From assembly GCF_016026235.1 (NCBI RefSeq), contig NZ_CP065613.1: a stretch of 64,000 nt of DNA, one strand, 5' to 3'. The position numbers and the translations under genes were made by a program. This DNA is from Escherichia coli (GTDB lineage Bacteria > Pseudomonadota > Gammaproteobacteria > Enterobacterales > Enterobacteriaceae). The notes below the pieces were generated by a model, which was given only the letters and a program-made list of their open reading frames with translations, made no database searches and was not told the origin of the DNA. Below are positions 36,038 through 55,170 of the stretch, in pieces. The number at the start of each line of letters is the position of its first letter. The stretch's first letter is position 1.

Positions 36038-36132
36038 GGAAGATCGTCGTCTCCGGTGAGGCGGCTGGACTTCAAATCCAGTTGGGGCCGCCAGCGGTCC
36101 CGGGCAGGTTCGACTCCTGTGATCTTCCGCCA
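36038..36132 (+). tRNA. selC: tRNA-Sec (selenocysteine tRNA)
   Basis: GGAAGATCGTCGTCTCCGGTGAGGCGGCTGGACTTCAAATCCAGT...GATCTTCCGCCA: 95 nt, long acceptor stem and extended variable arm, TCA anticodon in the loop (CTTCAAATC), genomically encoded CCA. Confidence 0.9.
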
Positions 36133-41783: not shown

Positions 41784-42143
41784 ATGCGCGTGTTTAAAAC
41801 CAAATGGTTTGCAAGGGAAGCCAGGTCTCATGCAATAACAGATGAAGAGTTGTGCCGGGCCATTTTAGAAACGGAGCAAGGTAAAGCTGATGCACTTGGT
41901 GGTGGCGTTTTTAAAAAGCGCCTTCACCAAAATCGTGAGCGTGCAATTATTCTGGCAAAAGGGGGAAGCAATTGGTTTTACACGTTTTTATATGCAAAAC
42001 AGGATATGTCGAACATCAATAGTCAGGAACTGGCTGGGTTTCGTGAACTTGCAAAGCATTATGCCTTCCTGACGAAAGCCCAGCTAACAGCAATGATTAA
42101 CACTAAAGAACTGACAGAGATCTGCTATGACTGCAAAAACTAA
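41784..42143 (+). CDS. HigB-like toxin (RelE/ParE superfamily) of a type II toxin-antitoxin pair
   Basis: 119 aa; the motif ...LGGGVFKKRLHQNRERAIILAKGGSNWFYTFLYAKQDMSNINSQEL... parallels the HigB pattern GxGGLRKxRxxxxGKGKRGGxRxIYYF...KNEMSDL (recalled). Toxin-first order with a 17-bp overlap onto the following HTH gene. Confidence 0.7.
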   Translation: MRVFKTKWFAREARSHAITDEELCRAILETEQGKADALGGGVFKKRLHQNRERAIILAKGGSNWFYTFLYAKQDMSNINSQELAGFRELAKHYAFLTKAQLTAMINTKELTEICYDCKN

Positions 42144-42450
42144 ATTTAAAAGTCCTGCATTTGAGGCTATTCACAGCGCAGCGGCTGGATTGTCCAGCGT
42201 CGATGCTATTTCTGCCGAAACAATGCGTACTTTTGACAAAGCCTGCCTGACCAGCGTGCAAGACTTACAACCTGTTGAGATAAAAGCACTGCGGGAAAAA
42301 TTAAAAGTGAGTCAGCCCGTCTTCGCTCACTATCTCAATACCAGCGTTTCAACTGTACAAAAATGGGAAAGTGGCGCTAAACGCCCCAATGGCATTTCAT
42401 TAAAACTGCTCAGCATTGTGCAAAAACACGGGCTGGATGTGCTGCTGTAA
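42127..42450 (+). CDS. HigA-like antitoxin (XRE-family helix-turn-helix)
   Basis: 107 aa; ...LKVSQPVFAHYLNTSVSTVQKWESGAKRPNGISLKLLSIVQKHG... matches the HigA-type HTH (VSQPVFA...STVQSWEQG...LRLLQIV, recalled). Confidence 0.7.
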   Translation: MTAKTKFKSPAFEAIHSAAAGLSSVDAISAETMRTFDKACLTSVQDLQPVEIKALREKLKVSQPVFAHYLNTSVSTVQKWESGAKRPNGISLKLLSIVQKHGLDVLL

Positions 42451-43017: not shown

Positions 43018-44301
43018 GAGTTCTCCTGCGTAATCAAAACTCATGATATCTGGAAACCCTCGCCAGTTACTAATCCACCAGAATAATCTTGAGTGCAAAC
43101 AGAGCTGCGACCACCACCACACACAGGTTCAGATCGCGCCAGCGCCCGGTGCACACTTTCATGATGCAGTACGACATAAAGCCGAGTGCAATCCCTTCGG
43201 TGATCGAGAAAGTAAAGGGCATCATCACCGTGGTAATAAACGCAGGCACCGATTCGGTAAAATCATCCCAGTTAACGCGCGCCAGGCTCGAAGTCATCAG
43301 CACGCCAACAAAGATTAACGCTCCAGCGGTTGCGTAAGGAGGAACCATCGCCACCAGCGGTGAGAAGAACATAACCAACAGGAACATAACGCCAACCACA
43401 ACCGCAGTCAGCCCCGTGCGGCCACCCACTGCCACGCCAGAAGTACTTTCAATATAGGCGGTAACAGACGAGGTGCCGATAAACGCACCCGCCACCGAAC
43501 TCACGCTATCAACATACAGCGCCTTATTCATATTGGGGAATTTACCGTTACTATCTATTAAGCCAGCTTTATCAGTCACACCAATTAATGTTCCTGATGA
43601 ATCAAATAGGTTGATCAGCATAAAGGAGAAAATGATACCGGCGAGTTCAAGTGTTAACGCGCCGCTCAAATCCACTTCACCAATGACGCCGCTAATATCA
43701 GGCGGAATGGAATAGACACCGCTAAAATGAACATCACCGAAAAATAATCCACAGCAAGACGTCACCACAATAGAAACCAGCACCGCGGCATGAAAATGAC
43801 GTGATGACAACACGGTTATAATAAAAAACCCTAAAATACCTAACAACACGCCGTGAGAACTTAAATCGCCAATCATCACCAGAGTGTCTTTATTGGCGAC
43901 AATAACGCCAGTATTTTTTAATCCCATTAAGGCGATAAATAATCCAATTCCGCTGGTGATACCAATACGTAAACTTAATGGAATGTTGGAGATCATCCAG
44001 TACCGGATACGAAACAGCGTGAGCAAAAATAGTCCAATTGCACCCCAGAATATTGCGCCCATCCCGGTCTGCCATGAGATCCCCATCGCCCCCACGACCA
44101 CGAAGGCAAAGAAGGCGTTCAGCCCCATTGCCGGAGCCAGCGCCACAGGTAAGTTAGCAAATATCCCCATCGCAATGCTGCCGATACCGGCAATCAAACA
44201 GGTGGTAACAAACACCACTTTCGGGTCCATTTGTGCCGCGCCGAGAATTTGCGGGTTCACAAAAACGATGTACACCATGGTTAAAAAAGTGGTCATCCCC
44301 T

Positions 44302-45589
44302 GAGGGATCCCCAGAAAATTTAGTAAACCATTATCATATTGGTATACCGTTGCTGTAGAACTTTCAGCCCTGCGTCAAGTGACAGTGTGTTTAGTATGAG
44401 TGGAGAATGTCGAATCACATTCTCCGCCAGTTTTAATAACGAGATGACTCGCCTGTGCTTCACTGTATTTGCCTGATATTTATGATGTATCCCTTTGTTT
44501 TCCAGGCTGAAACCGCTTAACCACATAATGATACTGGCTAATGTTGCGATCAGACTCAATACCGTGACCCGCCCGGATGAATGACTGGCACCAAACCGTA
44601 GTCCAAATCCCCAGCGAGGATTTTTTCATCCCTGAAATTTTGCTCAATTTGCATTCTACGGCTGTATAATTTCATTACCTGTTTTGGCGAGAACTCAGTA
44701 CTGTTTGTGAAAATAAACCATGGTGATTTCCCGGCAGTACGAGCTTTAGCCGTCACCGATGGTCTGGTTGCTCTTTCCTTCGAGCGTTTAAATCTACGAC
44801 CTTTAGACTTACTTTTATAAAGATAAAAATGCCCTTCATGTTGTGCATTTTTATCTCGACCCAGCAGGCCTTCATCTAAATAAATTGCTGTCGTTGATGC
44901 TTTTGTGCCTGAGTCCGACACCTTTTCCCAGCCATTACCAACATTGTAATAATGATTGCCCAGTACCCGGCAAATATAGGTCCAGCCACGGGAGCGGAGC
45001 TGTTGGAACCATCGCCCCTGAAAACCGGCATCTGTAATAACAATGACATCAGTCCCGGGGGAAAAGCACTCAGCAAGCGATTCCAGAAAACGCTCATGTA
45101 CATCTGCATTCGCTGTCTGTGATGATGGAACGACACAACTCATCAACGGTAAAGAACGCCCGTCACATGCCAGGCTTGCCCGCAAAAGCTGAAAACGAGA
45201 GGCATGATAAGCACTCCAGTCAATGAGTATCACAACACGAGACATTCCCCGCGTAATCTTTTGGGTAATTCGCTGAAAAATGGTGGAAACCTCATTTTGC
45301 AAATGTCGATTCCCCAACAGTCGATCCACCCGCTTTATTTTGTTTTTAACTGATGCCGTACCGGTTAAATGACGCCCGATACTGGTAAGTGTGAGGGAAG
45401 CGCCATTTATTACAGCATTAGTTGCGTCAATCAGTGATTTTTGACGGTAAAGATGCAAAGGGGCCAGTATGTTGTTAAGGAAATTTTGGCATAATGAACG
45501 TGCAGGCATAGTGGTGATCTCCTTGAAATTGTTAGCACAATCAATTAGATCACATCTCACTATGCCTGTCTTGTTTTCTGGGGATTCCT
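44302..45589 (-). mobile_element. IS4-family insertion sequence (IS10-like transposase), about 1.29 kb, with imperfect terminal inverted repeats and a 13-bp target site duplication
   Basis: Ends TGAGGGATCCCCAGAAAA (left) and, as reverse complement, GAGGAATCCCCAGAAAA (right); flanked by direct repeats AGTGGTCATCCCC at 44289-44301 and 45590-45602; encodes an IS10-like transposase. Confidence 0.8.
44320..45509 (-). pseudogene. IS4-family (IS10-like) transposase, reading frame broken by a frameshift in an A6 run
   Basis: MPARSLCQNFL...NKIKRVDRLLGNRHL...DAGF...YLYKSKSKGRRF...LYSRRMQIEQNFRDEK parallels IS10 transposase up to plus-strand 44621-44626 (TTTTTT). The homologous continuation ...NPRWGFGLRFGASHSS...HKYQANTVKHRRVISLL... 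is in another frame, ending at 44320. Confidence 0.7.
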
Positions 45590-45881
45590 CAGTGGTCATC
45601 CCCGCAATCAATTCTGTGCGGACGGTGGTCCCATGCTGAGGTAGTTTAAATAATCGCGAAAGCGTCCCTGATTCATTACTCACGTAATCGGTATTGTCAT
45701 TATTCATTTTTTTGTCCATTGGAGGAGATTTAATCCCTTGCTTTTGTAAAACAAATGACAACAACGGTTCAGTGATAATTATCACATTTCAATTGCACAT
45801 TAATGGATATTCTTTAATAATCTCGCGACGTTTCTTTATGATAAATAATAATCAAATTGATAAAATCAAAATGAGAAAAAT

Positions 45882-47648
45882 ATGAATAATTCTATTAACC
45901 ATAAATTTCATCACATTAGCCGGGCTGAATACCAGGAATTGTTAGCCGTTTCCCGTGGCGACGCTGTTGCCGATTATATTATTGATAATGTCTCTATTCT
46001 CGACCTGATCAATGGCGGAGAAATTTCCGGCCCAATTGTGATTAAAGGACGTTACATTGCCGGTGTTGGCGCAGAATACACTGATGCTCCGGCTTTGCAG
46101 CGGATTGATGCCCGCGGCGCAACGGCGGTGCCAGGGTTTATTGATGCTCACCTGCATATTGAATCCAGCATGATGACGCCGGTCACCTTTGAAACCGCTA
46201 CCCTGCCGCGTGGCCTGACGACCGTTATTTGCGACCCTCATGAAATCGTCAACGTGATGGGCGAAGCCGGATTCGCCTGGTTTGCCCGCTGTGCCGAACA
46301 GGCAAGGCAAAACCAGTACTTACAGGTCAGCTCTTGCGTACCCGCCCTGGAAGGCTGCGATGTTAACGGTGCCAGTTTTACCCTTGAACAGATGCTCGCC
46401 TGGCGGGACCATCCGCAGGTTACCGGCCTTGCAGAAATGATGGACTACCCTGGCGTAATTAGCGGGCAGAATGCGCTGCTCGATAAACTGGATGCATTTC
46501 GCTACCTGACGCTGGACGGTCACTGTCCGGGTTTGGGTGGCAAAGAACTTAACGCCTATATTGCTGCGGGTATTGAAAACTGCCACGAAAGTTATCAGCT
46601 GGAAGAAGGACGGCGGAAATTACAACTCGGCATGTCGTTGATGATCCGCGAAGGGTCCGCTGCCCGCAATCTCAACGCACTGGCACCGTTGATCAACGAA
46701 TTTAACAGCCCGCAATGCATGCTCTGTACCGATGACCGTAACCCGTGGGAAATCGCTCATGAAGGGCATATCGATGCCTTAATTCGCCGCCTGATCGAAC
46801 AACACAATGTGCCGCTGCATGTGGCATATCGCGTCGCCAGCTGGTCGACGGCGCGCCACTTTGGTCTGAATCACCTGGGCTTACTGGCACCCGGTAAGCA
46901 GGCTGATATCGTCCTGTTGAGCGATGCGCGTAAGGTCACGGTGCAGCAGGTACTGGTGAAAGGCGAACCGATTGACGCACAAACCTTACAGGCGGAAGAG
47001 TCGGCGAGACTGGCGCAGTCTGCCCCGCCATTTGGCAATACCATTGCCCGCCAGCCAGTTTCCGCCAGCGACTTTGCCCTGCAATTCATGCCCGGAAAAC
47101 GCTATCGGGTCATTGACGTCATCCATAACGAATTGATTACGCACTCCCGCTCCAGCGTCTATAGCGAAAATGGTTTTGATCGCGATGATGTGTGCTTTAT
47201 TGCCGTACTTGAGCGTTACGGGCAACGGCTGGCTCCGGCCTGTGGTTTGCTCGGCGGCTTTGGCCTGAATGAAGGTGCGCTGGCTGCGACGGTCAGCCAT
47301 GACAGCCATAATATTGTGGTGATCGGTCGCAGTGCGGAAGAGATGGCGCTGGCGGTCAATCAGGTGATTCAGGATGGCGGCGGGCTGTGCGTGGTACGTA
47401 ACGGCCAGGTACAAAGTCATCTACCGTTGCCCATTGCCGGGCTGATGAGCACCGACACGGCGCAGTCGCTGGCCGAGCAAATTGACGCCTTGAAAGCCGC
47501 CGCCCGTGAATGCGGTCCGTTACCCGATGAGCCGTTTATTCAGATGGCGTTTCTTTCTCTGCCAGTGATCCCCGAGCTAAAACTAACCAGTCAGGGGCTA
47601 TTTGATGGCGAGAAGTTTGCCTTCACCACGCTAGAAGTCACGGAATAA
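45882..47648 (+). CDS. ade: adenine deaminase
   Basis: 588 aa [41 protein letters not shown]... with amidohydrolase metal-binding motif ([10 protein letters not shown]). Confidence 0.95.
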
Positions 47649-55028: not shown

Positions 55029-55170
55029 AACAAAAAACCCCGCCGGAGCGAGGTTTCGTCAGCCGCCTGCGGCTGGTAACCGCAAAGCACACTGTATTAT
55101 GTCAACACTGAAAGTATACCTGTTCCGCGCAGAACGCGCAATTTCGGCACGAATTTTGACGTATTTAGTA
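55029..55170 (-). ncRNA. istR: IstR small RNA (antitoxin RNA of the tisB type I toxin system); boundaries approximate
   Basis: Minus-strand terminator at 55029-55058; the segment GCACACTGTATTATGTCAACA (55087-55107) is a near-identical direct repeat of 55345-55365 in the tisB leader, as needed for a divergently encoded RNA to pair with tisB mRNA. Confidence 0.45.

Follow-up and report, generated by a model that had tools for sequence, protein, structure and literature searches.

The region described here belongs to a 64,000-nucleotide stretch of Escherichia coli DNA (the window; contig NZ_CP065613.1 of assembly GCF_016026235.1). The adenine permease gene adeQ (yicO) lies on the minus strand in two portions, codons 1-39 at 45593..45707 and codons 37-444 with the stop codon at 43070..44299, and between them is an insertion sequence. 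The adenine deaminase gene adeD (ade, yicP) follows on the plus strand at 45882..47648. It forms an uninterrupted ORF of 588 codons, as the initial annotation had said in calling it intact; the 588-aa product carries the Pfam domains Amidohydro_1 and Adenine_deam_C, and differs from its counterpart in E. coli ES5 by six substitutions and no stop codons.

When the element and one copy of the flanking repeat were excised in silico (43070-44299 joined to 45603-45707), a 444-aa AdeQ was restored that is 100% identical to WP_001362489.1 of E. coli ES5. The earlier placement of the split after codon 39 is correct, and no other damage was found in adeQ. The 3' portion encodes a 408-aa product that matches Pfam Xan_ur_permease; the program-called ORF for this remnant begins MTTFLT... 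with Met37, whose ATG (44296) is part of the left copy of the target duplication.

Identity, ends and target site of the element

The inserted DNA (44300-45592, 1293 bp), whose transposase gene lies on the minus strand, is an ISEc60 element and belongs to the IS10 group of the IS4 family. It is 99.8% identical across its whole length to copies annotated as 'IS4-like element ISEc60 family transposase' (transposase WP_001111632.1), and three differences, one deletion and two substitutions, separate it from the canonical 1294-bp sequence. Copies with this level of nucleotide identity occur in E. coli CFSAN029787, RMDEC332/364, VL46 and FDAARGOS_943 and on E. albertii plasmids. The name ISEc60 is taken from the NCBI annotation of these near-identical copies and not from the ISfinder entry itself. 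Assignment to the IS4 family, already proposed, was borne out by matches of the transposase to Pfam DDE_Tnp_1 and NCBIfam NF033591. Its description as IS10-like likewise held, as the terminal 13 bp are nearly the same as in IS10A and the transposases of the two elements (IS10A: WP_001206290.1) are 36% identical across 372 aa (E = 5e-76). That identity is, on the other hand, too low for IS10 itself or a Tn10 remnant, and both were ruled out. A composite transposon with a second ISEc60 copy in the window was also ruled out, as the end motif is present only twice.

The element is bounded by 19-bp inverted repeats of the form CTGAGG(G/A)ATCCCCAGAAAA, which begin with the 5'-CT typical of the IS4 family and match each other at 18 of 19 positions; the two matches in the window compare with 0.01 expected by chance. 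The transposase-distal repeat, CTGAGGGATCCCCAGAAAA (44300..44318, plus strand), contains a GATC site, and the transposase-proximal repeat, CTGAGGAATCCCCAGAAAA when read as the reverse complement (45574..45592, minus strand), does not. Imperfect terminal repeats had been noted before, correctly, but with boundaries two bases too far in, as the ends begin further out with CTGAGG... The corresponding ends of IS10A are CTGAAGGATCCCC (distal) and CTGAAGAATCCCC (proximal). Over the terminal 13 bp the two elements are nearly identical, with CTGA(A/G)GAATCCCC at the proximal end and CTGA(A/G)GGATCCCC, including the GATC, at the distal end. ISEc60 therefore has the CTGA..ATCCCC termini of the IS10 group with GATC at the transposase-distal end only, and the A/G asymmetry that creates this single site is common to both elements. 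ISSfl1, an IS4-family element of the Shigella flexneri virulence plasmid, also has inverted repeats that are nearly identical to those of ISEc60 over their first 19-20 bp.

Comparison with the empty site and with other ISEc60 copies defined a 10-bp target duplication, TGGTCATCCC, at 44290..44299 on the left and 45593..45602 on the right. In E. coli ES5 the same 10-mer is present once, at position 2391 of the ES5 locus. The initial annotation described a 13-bp target duplication, and a 13-bp direct repeat does exist (AGTGGTCATCCCC, at 44288-44300 and 45591-45603, one base away from where it had been put). However, three of the 13 bases, the AG and the C, belong to the termini of ISEc60 (...CCTCAG and CTGAGG...), and they lengthen the repeat only because the flanking target has the same bases there by coincidence. 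With a duplication of 10 bp, the earlier element length of 1288 bp and the earlier repeat boundaries are also incorrect.

The length of the duplication was assessed in 19 other distinct ISEc60 copies. A 10-bp duplication was perfect in 13 of them and had one mismatch in three more, and 10 bp was the only length that fitted every copy with intact flanks. Models of 12 and 13 bp failed at three independent sites, and a 9-bp register gave two to seven mismatches in every copy. The value lies within the range of about 9-13 bp for the IS4 family but departs from the 9-bp duplication of IS10; ISSfl1 also had 9 bp in the one copy examined. ISEc60 prefers targets of the form G(G/A)GWWATCCC, and the site in adeQ fits. 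In its inverted repeats, duplication length and target preference, the window copy is the same as other ISEc60 copies. The 10-bp duplication with its GGG..CCC preference is a modest addition to the record of this little-studied element.

Judging from its family membership, ISEc60 would have transposed by cut-and-paste into TGGTCATCCC, within adeQ codons 37-40, and duplicated the target in doing so.

Transposase gene, start-codon hairpin and fusion frame

As written, the transposase gene of the window copy is frameshifted, a point that the initial annotation missed together with the reason why the called ORF stops at 44556. The truncated ORF (44556..45509, minus strand) encodes 296 native residues followed by 21 frameshifted residues and a stop. 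The cause is a 1-bp deletion in a run at 44621..44626, which is T6 instead of the canonical T7 (A6 instead of A7 on the coding strand) and shifts the frame directly after Lys296. The last 100 residues (297-396) remain as an out-of-frame segment at 44320..44620 (minus strand), in which frame 2 reads NPRWGFGLRFGASHSSGRVTVLSLIATLA...NMIMVY, the exact C-terminal sequence of WP_001111632.1, with its stop codon at 44320-44322. The two substitutions that account for the rest of the divergence from canonical ISEc60 are G>A at 44807 (Pro235 to Ser) and C>T at 44875 (Gly212 to Asp), and both residues are conserved in IS10A.

The truncated product retains D97, D160 and E289 and the Y282/R285/E289/K296 motif. 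The Y-(2)-R-(3)-E-(6)-K signature of the IS4 family reads Y282-S-R-R285-M-Q-I-E289-Q-N-F-R-D-E-K296 and aligns with the same block of IS10A; the motif YSRRMQIEQNFRDEK is present in the ISEc60 transposase. In the canonical copy, DDE_Tnp_1 (PF01609) covers residues 98-302 (E = 2.8e-20), a stretch over which the window protein is identical except for G212D and P235S. NF033591 (transpos_IS4_2, cut-off 152) scored 360.5 bits with the canonical protein and 262.2 bits with the truncated window product, which covers only model positions 1-245 of 340. The IS10A transposase is likewise a DDE enzyme of about 400 aa, and its D97, D160/161 and YREK block align with those of ISEc60, although protein identity is only 36%. 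Besides ISEc60 copies, the closest named relative is ISSfl1, a separate element with 51.6% transposase identity and DNA about 71% identical to ISEc60 at the 5' end. A search of solved structures in the PDB for a transposase relative gave no significant sequence match. The window does not contain an intact 396-aa transposase as an autonomous copy would, and as written this copy should be unable to move by itself; its ends are intact and could still be used by transposase made in trans from another copy.

The start of the transposase gene is overlapped by a stem-loop. Its ATG (45509-45507, minus strand) lies within a plus-strand hairpin at 45502..45572 (minimum free energy -32 kcal/mol, z = -4.07) that is a candidate RNA-OUT-like antisense RNA. 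In an alignment with eight relatives, 95.4% of cells were paired, compared with 20-49% when the pairing partners were slid, and two compensatory pairs were present; ISSfl1 has the same hairpin with compensatory changes. These data lend modest support to a conserved and stable hairpin antisense to the start of the transposase gene, modest because only eight related sequences contribute. All 70 positions of the Rfam RNA-OUT model (RF00240) aligned, in the expected location and on the expected strand, with 16.8 bits and E = 9.1. As this is below the gathering score of 41, membership in RF00240 was rejected; the equivalent position of IS10A scores 85.9 bits. IS10 likewise has a stem-loop of about 70 nt at the corresponding position across its transposase start codon, and it is the only element in which Dam and antisense control have been demonstrated; for ISEc60 we infer both. 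On the sense strand, the fold-back may hide the transposase start codon in read-through transcripts. A conserved RNA-OUT-like hairpin in the ISEc60/ISSfl1 group would be a modest addition to the record.

The program-called ORF at 44556..45785 (minus strand) is chimeric, as had been recognized from the start: it joins the adeQ N-terminus (MNNDN...AGMTT, 39 codons) through 27 codons of IS leader to the transposase frame. Because no stop codon interrupts reading from adeQ codon 1 across the IS tip into the transposase, we considered whether AdeQ(1-39)-linker-transposase could be a functional fusion, in which translation from the adeQ start opens the start-hiding hairpin and deregulates transposase synthesis. 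The position of the transposase start codon in the 3' arm of the conserved sense-strand stem suits this proposal, as does a full-length version in another assembly, GCA_900449985.1, where the gene caller gives 462 aa (39 + 27 + 396), which puts 66 extra residues at the N-terminus of the transposase. However, an insertion falls in the right frame by chance one time in three, 27 stop-free codons are not unusual, and the transposase part is frameshifted in the window. adeQ, moreover, has AT-rich surroundings and a neighbour that H-NS silences, and its expression may be weak. We therefore regard a functional fusion as very improbable, and the in-frame AdeQ'-transposase ORF is most probably an accidental by-product of the insertion frame.

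Reality and distribution of the insertion

Insertion sequences are frequent sites of misassembly, and the interruption could in principle be an artefact, if a repeat had been wrongly placed in adeQ or the contig were chimeric. Two further assemblies, found through protein-collection matches to the 408-aa AdeQ remnant, bear on this. GCA_900449985.1 has the same junction on a 4.56-Mb contig and aligns with the window over 9227 bp with a single gap. The draft assembly GCA_001907545.1 also has the junction and is 100% identical up to the end of its contig within the IS. As at least two other public assemblies carry the same insertion, it is not an artefact of this one. In addition, both junctions in the window are clean, the 10-mer found once in the empty site is duplicated there without a mismatch, and the length of the duplication and the target sequence match the habit of ISEc60 at 16 other sites. 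Set against the one homopolymer discrepancy between the window and GCA_900449985.1, these observations, the shared junctions above all, render misassembly very unlikely.

That discrepancy does bear on the transposase gene. GCA_900449985.1 shares both substitutions (44807 and 44875) and has the T7 run and an intact transposase gene. As this assembly agrees with the window in insertion and substitutions and yet has A7, the missing A in the window may be a homopolymer error of sequencing or assembly.

Among 5426 complete E. coli genomes, full-length ISEc60 was found in 11, and none covered at least 80% of a query spanning the adeQ-ISEc60 junction. The junction was also not found in GTDB representative genomes, and four candidate translations that include the transposase, namely the truncated protein by itself and three versions with different chimeric starts, had no match in the protein collection. 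The insertion is, on these comparisons, apparently a recent event in a single lineage, because adeQ is otherwise undamaged and the junctions occur in a few near-identical assemblies and in 0 of the 5426 complete genomes.

Predicted consequences for adeQ and adeD

The insertion parts the promoter, the ribosome-binding site and the first 39 codons of adeQ from the remaining 405 codons, and the strain is therefore predicted to be without the AdeQ adenine permease. The surviving 408-aa ORF from Met37 lacks its own promoter, and the sole stretch that resembles a Shine-Dalgarno sequence (GGGG) stands immediately next to the ATG; expression of this remnant is unlikely. Taken together, the features of the locus make it very probable that ISEc60 inserted recently in adeQ within a confined lineage, with loss of AdeQ, a transposase that is frameshifted as written and an accidental fusion ORF. 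The insertion is an ordinary knock-out of adeQ by a catalogued mobile element. As another adenine permease, AdeP/PurP, exists in E. coli, the strain is not expected to lose adenine uptake, and the biological consequence of losing adeQ should be small. The gene name adeP is used for an adenine permease in PMC13274399.

The initial annotation treated adeQ as lost and the neighbouring ade gene simply as intact. ade is indeed intact; this may nevertheless not be the whole consequence, as published activation of adeD had been overlooked and insertions here are a published route to activation of the cryptic gene. PMC2753651, citing Petersen 2002, describes IS5 and other IS elements as activating cryptic ade by relieving H-NS repression, and both PMC13274399 and PMC2753651 report activation of adeD by insertions of this kind. 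A yicO::kan insertion oriented toward yicP gave apparent ade activation, whereas the opposite orientation gave none (PMC3809563). The window insertion lies likewise upstream of adeD, 289 bp from its ATG, within adeQ codons 37-40. It resembles the alleles of Petersen, Moller and Valentin-Hansen 2002 (J Biol Chem 277:31373) in its position in the adeQ start and in AT-rich DNA, but those were lab-selected insertions of IS5 and other K-12 elements with measured activation, whereas the window holds ISEc60 in a natural isolate.

We therefore weighed whether the insertion is mainly a gain of function that activates a silent, H-NS-repressed adeD, with the loss of adeQ as collateral. Activation could proceed by moving the AT-rich silencing DNA upstream away from the adeD promoter, by pOUT-like readout, or by both. 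The transposase-proximal end of the IS faces adeD, no intrinsic terminator was predicted from the IS end to adeD, and the adeQ-adeD spacer is 27% G+C. An extended -10-like sequence, TGGCATAAT (45487..45495), on the adeD strand is a candidate outward-reading promoter of the pOUT type. It ends 7 nt before the base of the hairpin, the position that IS10A uses for RNA-OUT, and CATAAT or CATACT occurs at the same spacing in ISSfl1 and in a Salmonella relative. A sigma-70 consensus scan called no promoter at the IS end facing adeD; such a scan misses TGGCATAAT because it has no -35 hexamer.

Other features weigh against activation. A U-rich tract, UCUUGUUUUCU, follows the hairpin, and most outward transcripts may therefore terminate within the IS. 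As the target fits the sequence preference of ISEc60, no selection is needed to explain the site. The activating insertions in Petersen's work are said to lie between roughly -145 and +13 relative to the start of ade transcription, and the window insertion may lie further upstream than this interval. Papers citing Petersen 2002 gave no coordinates for adeQ/adeD insertions. On balance, we consider it unlikely that activation of adeD is the main effect. It is similarly doubtful, though conceivable, that this ISEc60 insertion is the natural-isolate counterpart of the lab-selected ade activations, by which the lineage would have gained conversion of adenine to hypoxanthine rather than just losing a redundant permease.

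For annotation, adeQ should be recorded as a pseudogene interrupted by ISEc60, the 409-aa ORF should not be taken as a gene, and the transposase of the window copy should carry a frameshift flag until the reads have been checked. Because IS insertions at this locus are known to wake the H-NS-silenced adenine deaminase, the strain could also serve as a natural test case for the waking of adeD and for outward transcription from an IS10-like element.

Identity and boundaries of the element in adeQ

Across window positions 44200-45700, we found a 1293-bp block that ends in 19-bp inverted repeats, the left at 44300-44318 (CTGAGGGATCCCCAGAAAA) and the right at 45574-45592 (the reverse complement of CTGAGGAATCCCCAGAAAA). 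The repeat motif occurred exactly twice in the window, compared with 0.01 occurrences expected by chance. The boundaries of the element are 44300-45592; the initial annotation had recognized the terminal repeats but placed the coordinates one base off and made the repeats 2 bases too short. The transposase reading frame begins with an ATG at 45509 on the minus strand. The ORF at 44556..45785, previously described as chimeric, is indeed so: it opens upstream of adeQ, reads adeQ codons 1-39 and then 27 IS-leader codons, and continues in the transposase frame.

A megablast search of 5426 complete E. coli genomes returned full-length matches with 99.8% identity, labeled by NCBI as 'IS4-like element ISEc60 family transposase' (WP_001111632.1, 396 aa). 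On sequence identity, the element is ISEc60, a name taken from the NCBI annotation of these near-identical copies. Five copies of the canonical element, taken from different strains and replicons, were mutually identical and each 1294 bp long. ISEc60 is rare, as only 11 of the 5426 genomes contained full-length copies and 264 contained fragments.

The ISEc60 transposase contained a Pfam DDE_Tnp_1 domain, scored 360.5 bits with the NCBIfam IS4 model NF033591 (cut-off 152), and carried the IS4 signature Y282-x2-R285-x3-E289-x6-K296, preceded by D97 and D160. It shared 36% identity with the IS10A transposase over 372 residues (E = 5e-76) and 51.6% with that of ISSfl1. The ends of ISEc60 and IS10A are almost the same, both proximal to the transposase (CTGAGGAATCCCC versus CTGAAGAATCCCC) and distal to it (CTGAGGGATCCCC versus CTGAAGGATCCCC), and in each element a GATC site is found at the distal end only. 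The earlier assignment as an IS10-like member of the IS4 family was therefore correct by domain matches, signature, transposase and termini.

Target duplication and effects on adeQ and adeD

A 13-bp target duplication had been proposed for this insertion; its real length is 10 bp (TGGTCATCCC, 44290-44299 and 45593-45602), as judged from 19 distinct ISEc60 copies and their flanking sequence (one copy being an 85% variant) and from E. coli ES5, whose uninterrupted adeQ contains this 10-mer once. Thirteen of the 19 copies had a perfect 10-bp duplication and three had one mismatch, two of the latter being halves of one tandem pair. Another two copies had unrelated flanks, presumably as a result of recombination between copies. 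A 9-bp duplication produced 2-7 mismatches in every copy, and a 12-bp duplication, with the element one base shorter per end, failed at three independent sites (the shared L004/L005 locus, L006 and L008). In the 13-mer (AGTGGTCATCCCC, 44288-44300 and 45591-45603), the extra AG and C belong to the element itself, as its final two bases (...CCTCAG) and its first base (CTGAGG...), and match the bases adjoining the target. The match is explained by the target preference: pooled targets read G-(G/A)-G-W-W-A-T-C-C-C, mostly with g before and c after, so that the repeat appears longer than 10 bp in most copies.

The GGGG..CCCC palindrome of the target resembles the element's own tip, GGGATCCCC, and several targets adjoin hok/ibs toxin loci or look stem-loop-like. 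Head-to-tail tandem copies separated by just the 10-bp target GGTAAATCCC were also seen (locus L001, positions 290/301; loci L021 and L022), which suggests either an IS-dimer intermediate or a renewed insertion into the hot target once duplicated.

In-silico removal of 44300-45602 restored a 444-aa protein that matches AdeQ WP_001362489.1 at 100% identity; therefore, the insertion is the sole lesion of adeQ and is recent. As initially reported, adeQ is split after codon 39. The insertion cuts off the promoter, the ribosome-binding site and the first 39 codons from the remainder of the gene. The residual 408-codon ORF starts at Met37 within the duplicated target. As its only Shine-Dalgarno-like bases (GGGG) sit directly against the ATG and it lacks its own promoter, we infer that this remnant would not be expressed. 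Many truncated AdeQ products are recorded in the AdeQ protein cluster (Shigella boydii, S. sonnei, S. flexneri and several E. coli), and adeQ seems to be repeatedly disrupted or split in nature.

The adjacent adeD (45882-47648) is intact, as previously noted, with 588 codons and six substitutions relative to ES5. Although rather unlikely, its activation by the insertion is a plausible candidate effect, because the outward-facing end of ISEc60 is directed at adeD across 289 bp of AT-rich DNA (with a spacer of 27% G+C) that has no predicted terminator, and ade activations have been published. A passage of PMC2753651, citing Petersen 2002, describes cryptic ade as H-NS-silenced and activated by IS insertion, and yicP seemed to be activated by a yicO::kan cassette only with the cassette promoter facing it (PMC3809563). 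Against such activation, a U-rich tract after the hairpin described below may stop outward transcripts.

Elsewhere in the window, the interval between nepI and yicN holds two overlapping plus-strand genes, one for a RelE/ParE-type toxin (41784-42143; Pfam RelE) and one for an HTH antitoxin (42127-42450; Pfam HTH_3), a pair also annotated in ES5. tRNA-Sec (selC, 36038-36128, plus strand) has no obvious island behind it, and the ORFs directly after it match K-12 setC, yicL and nlpA in size. At 55032-55161 (minus strand), the window also contains istR, the small RNA of the tisB/istR locus.

Transposase frameshift and a candidate regulatory hairpin

The window copy differed from canonical ISEc60 at three positions: G>A at 44807 (Pro235Ser), C>T at 44875 (Gly212Asp), and loss of one T from the T7 run at 44621-44626, which is A7 in the coding orientation. 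At both substituted positions, IS10A has the canonical residue. The frame shifts directly after K296, the final residue of the catalytic motif, giving 296 native and 21 aberrant residues with the last 100 out of frame; the product spans only positions 1-245 of the 340 in NF033591. The frameshift either arose very recently or reflects a homopolymer error.

On the sense strand, the transposase ATG lies in the 3' arm of a 70-nt stem-loop at 45502-45572 (MFE -32 kcal/mol, z = -4.07). Among eight relatives, including ISSfl1, Salmonella, E. fergusonii and E. albertii copies, stem pairing was retained in 95.4% of cells versus 20-49% with partners slid, and two stem pairs had compensatory changes. This pairing pattern lends modest but consistent support to a conserved stem-loop. 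The Rfam RNA-OUT model matched at full length, on the exact interval and strand, but it scored 16.8 bits where the gathering threshold is 41, and the hairpin is therefore not a demonstrable member of that family; IS10A scored 85.9 bits at the equivalent position. By analogy with IS10, the ISEc60 hairpin is nonetheless a candidate that probably acts in an RNA-OUT-like manner. An extended -10-like sequence, TGGCATAAT (45487-45495, plus strand), ends 7 nt short of the stem, and related elements keep CATAAT or CATACT at equal spacing. In ISSfl1 (locus L017, 319-416; alignments A1/A2), two stem positions are now G-U on the antisense strand and would be A-C mismatches on the sense strand, a hint that the antisense, RNA-OUT-like strand may be the one under selection. 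A decayed fragment (L036) showed the pattern opposite to the ISSfl1 stem changes.

The same insertion in other assemblies

The insertion was found in none of the 5426 complete E. coli genomes, nor was its junction found among GTDB representative genomes. The 408-aa AdeQ remnant is recorded in public collections and points to GCA_900449985.1 (contig UGFA01000002.1, 4.56 Mb), where a single gap was the one difference from the window across 9227 bp. This assembly shares the insertion and both substitutions with the window but keeps the A7 run intact, and a 462-aa AdeQ'-transposase fusion is called. GCA_001907545.1 (LSGK01000004.1), a draft assembly from a near-identical strain, was 100% identical up to its contig end, 270 bp inside the element (window 44569). 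As both assemblies carry the insertion, it is not an assembly artefact, a concern raised in the initial annotation.

The event is an ordinary one: within a single E. coli lineage, adeQ recently received an insertion of ISEc60, a rare member of the IS10 group that is already known. The draft contig break inside the IS of GCA_001907545.1 suggests that the lineage has further ISEc60 copies, which, if present, could provide transposase in trans.
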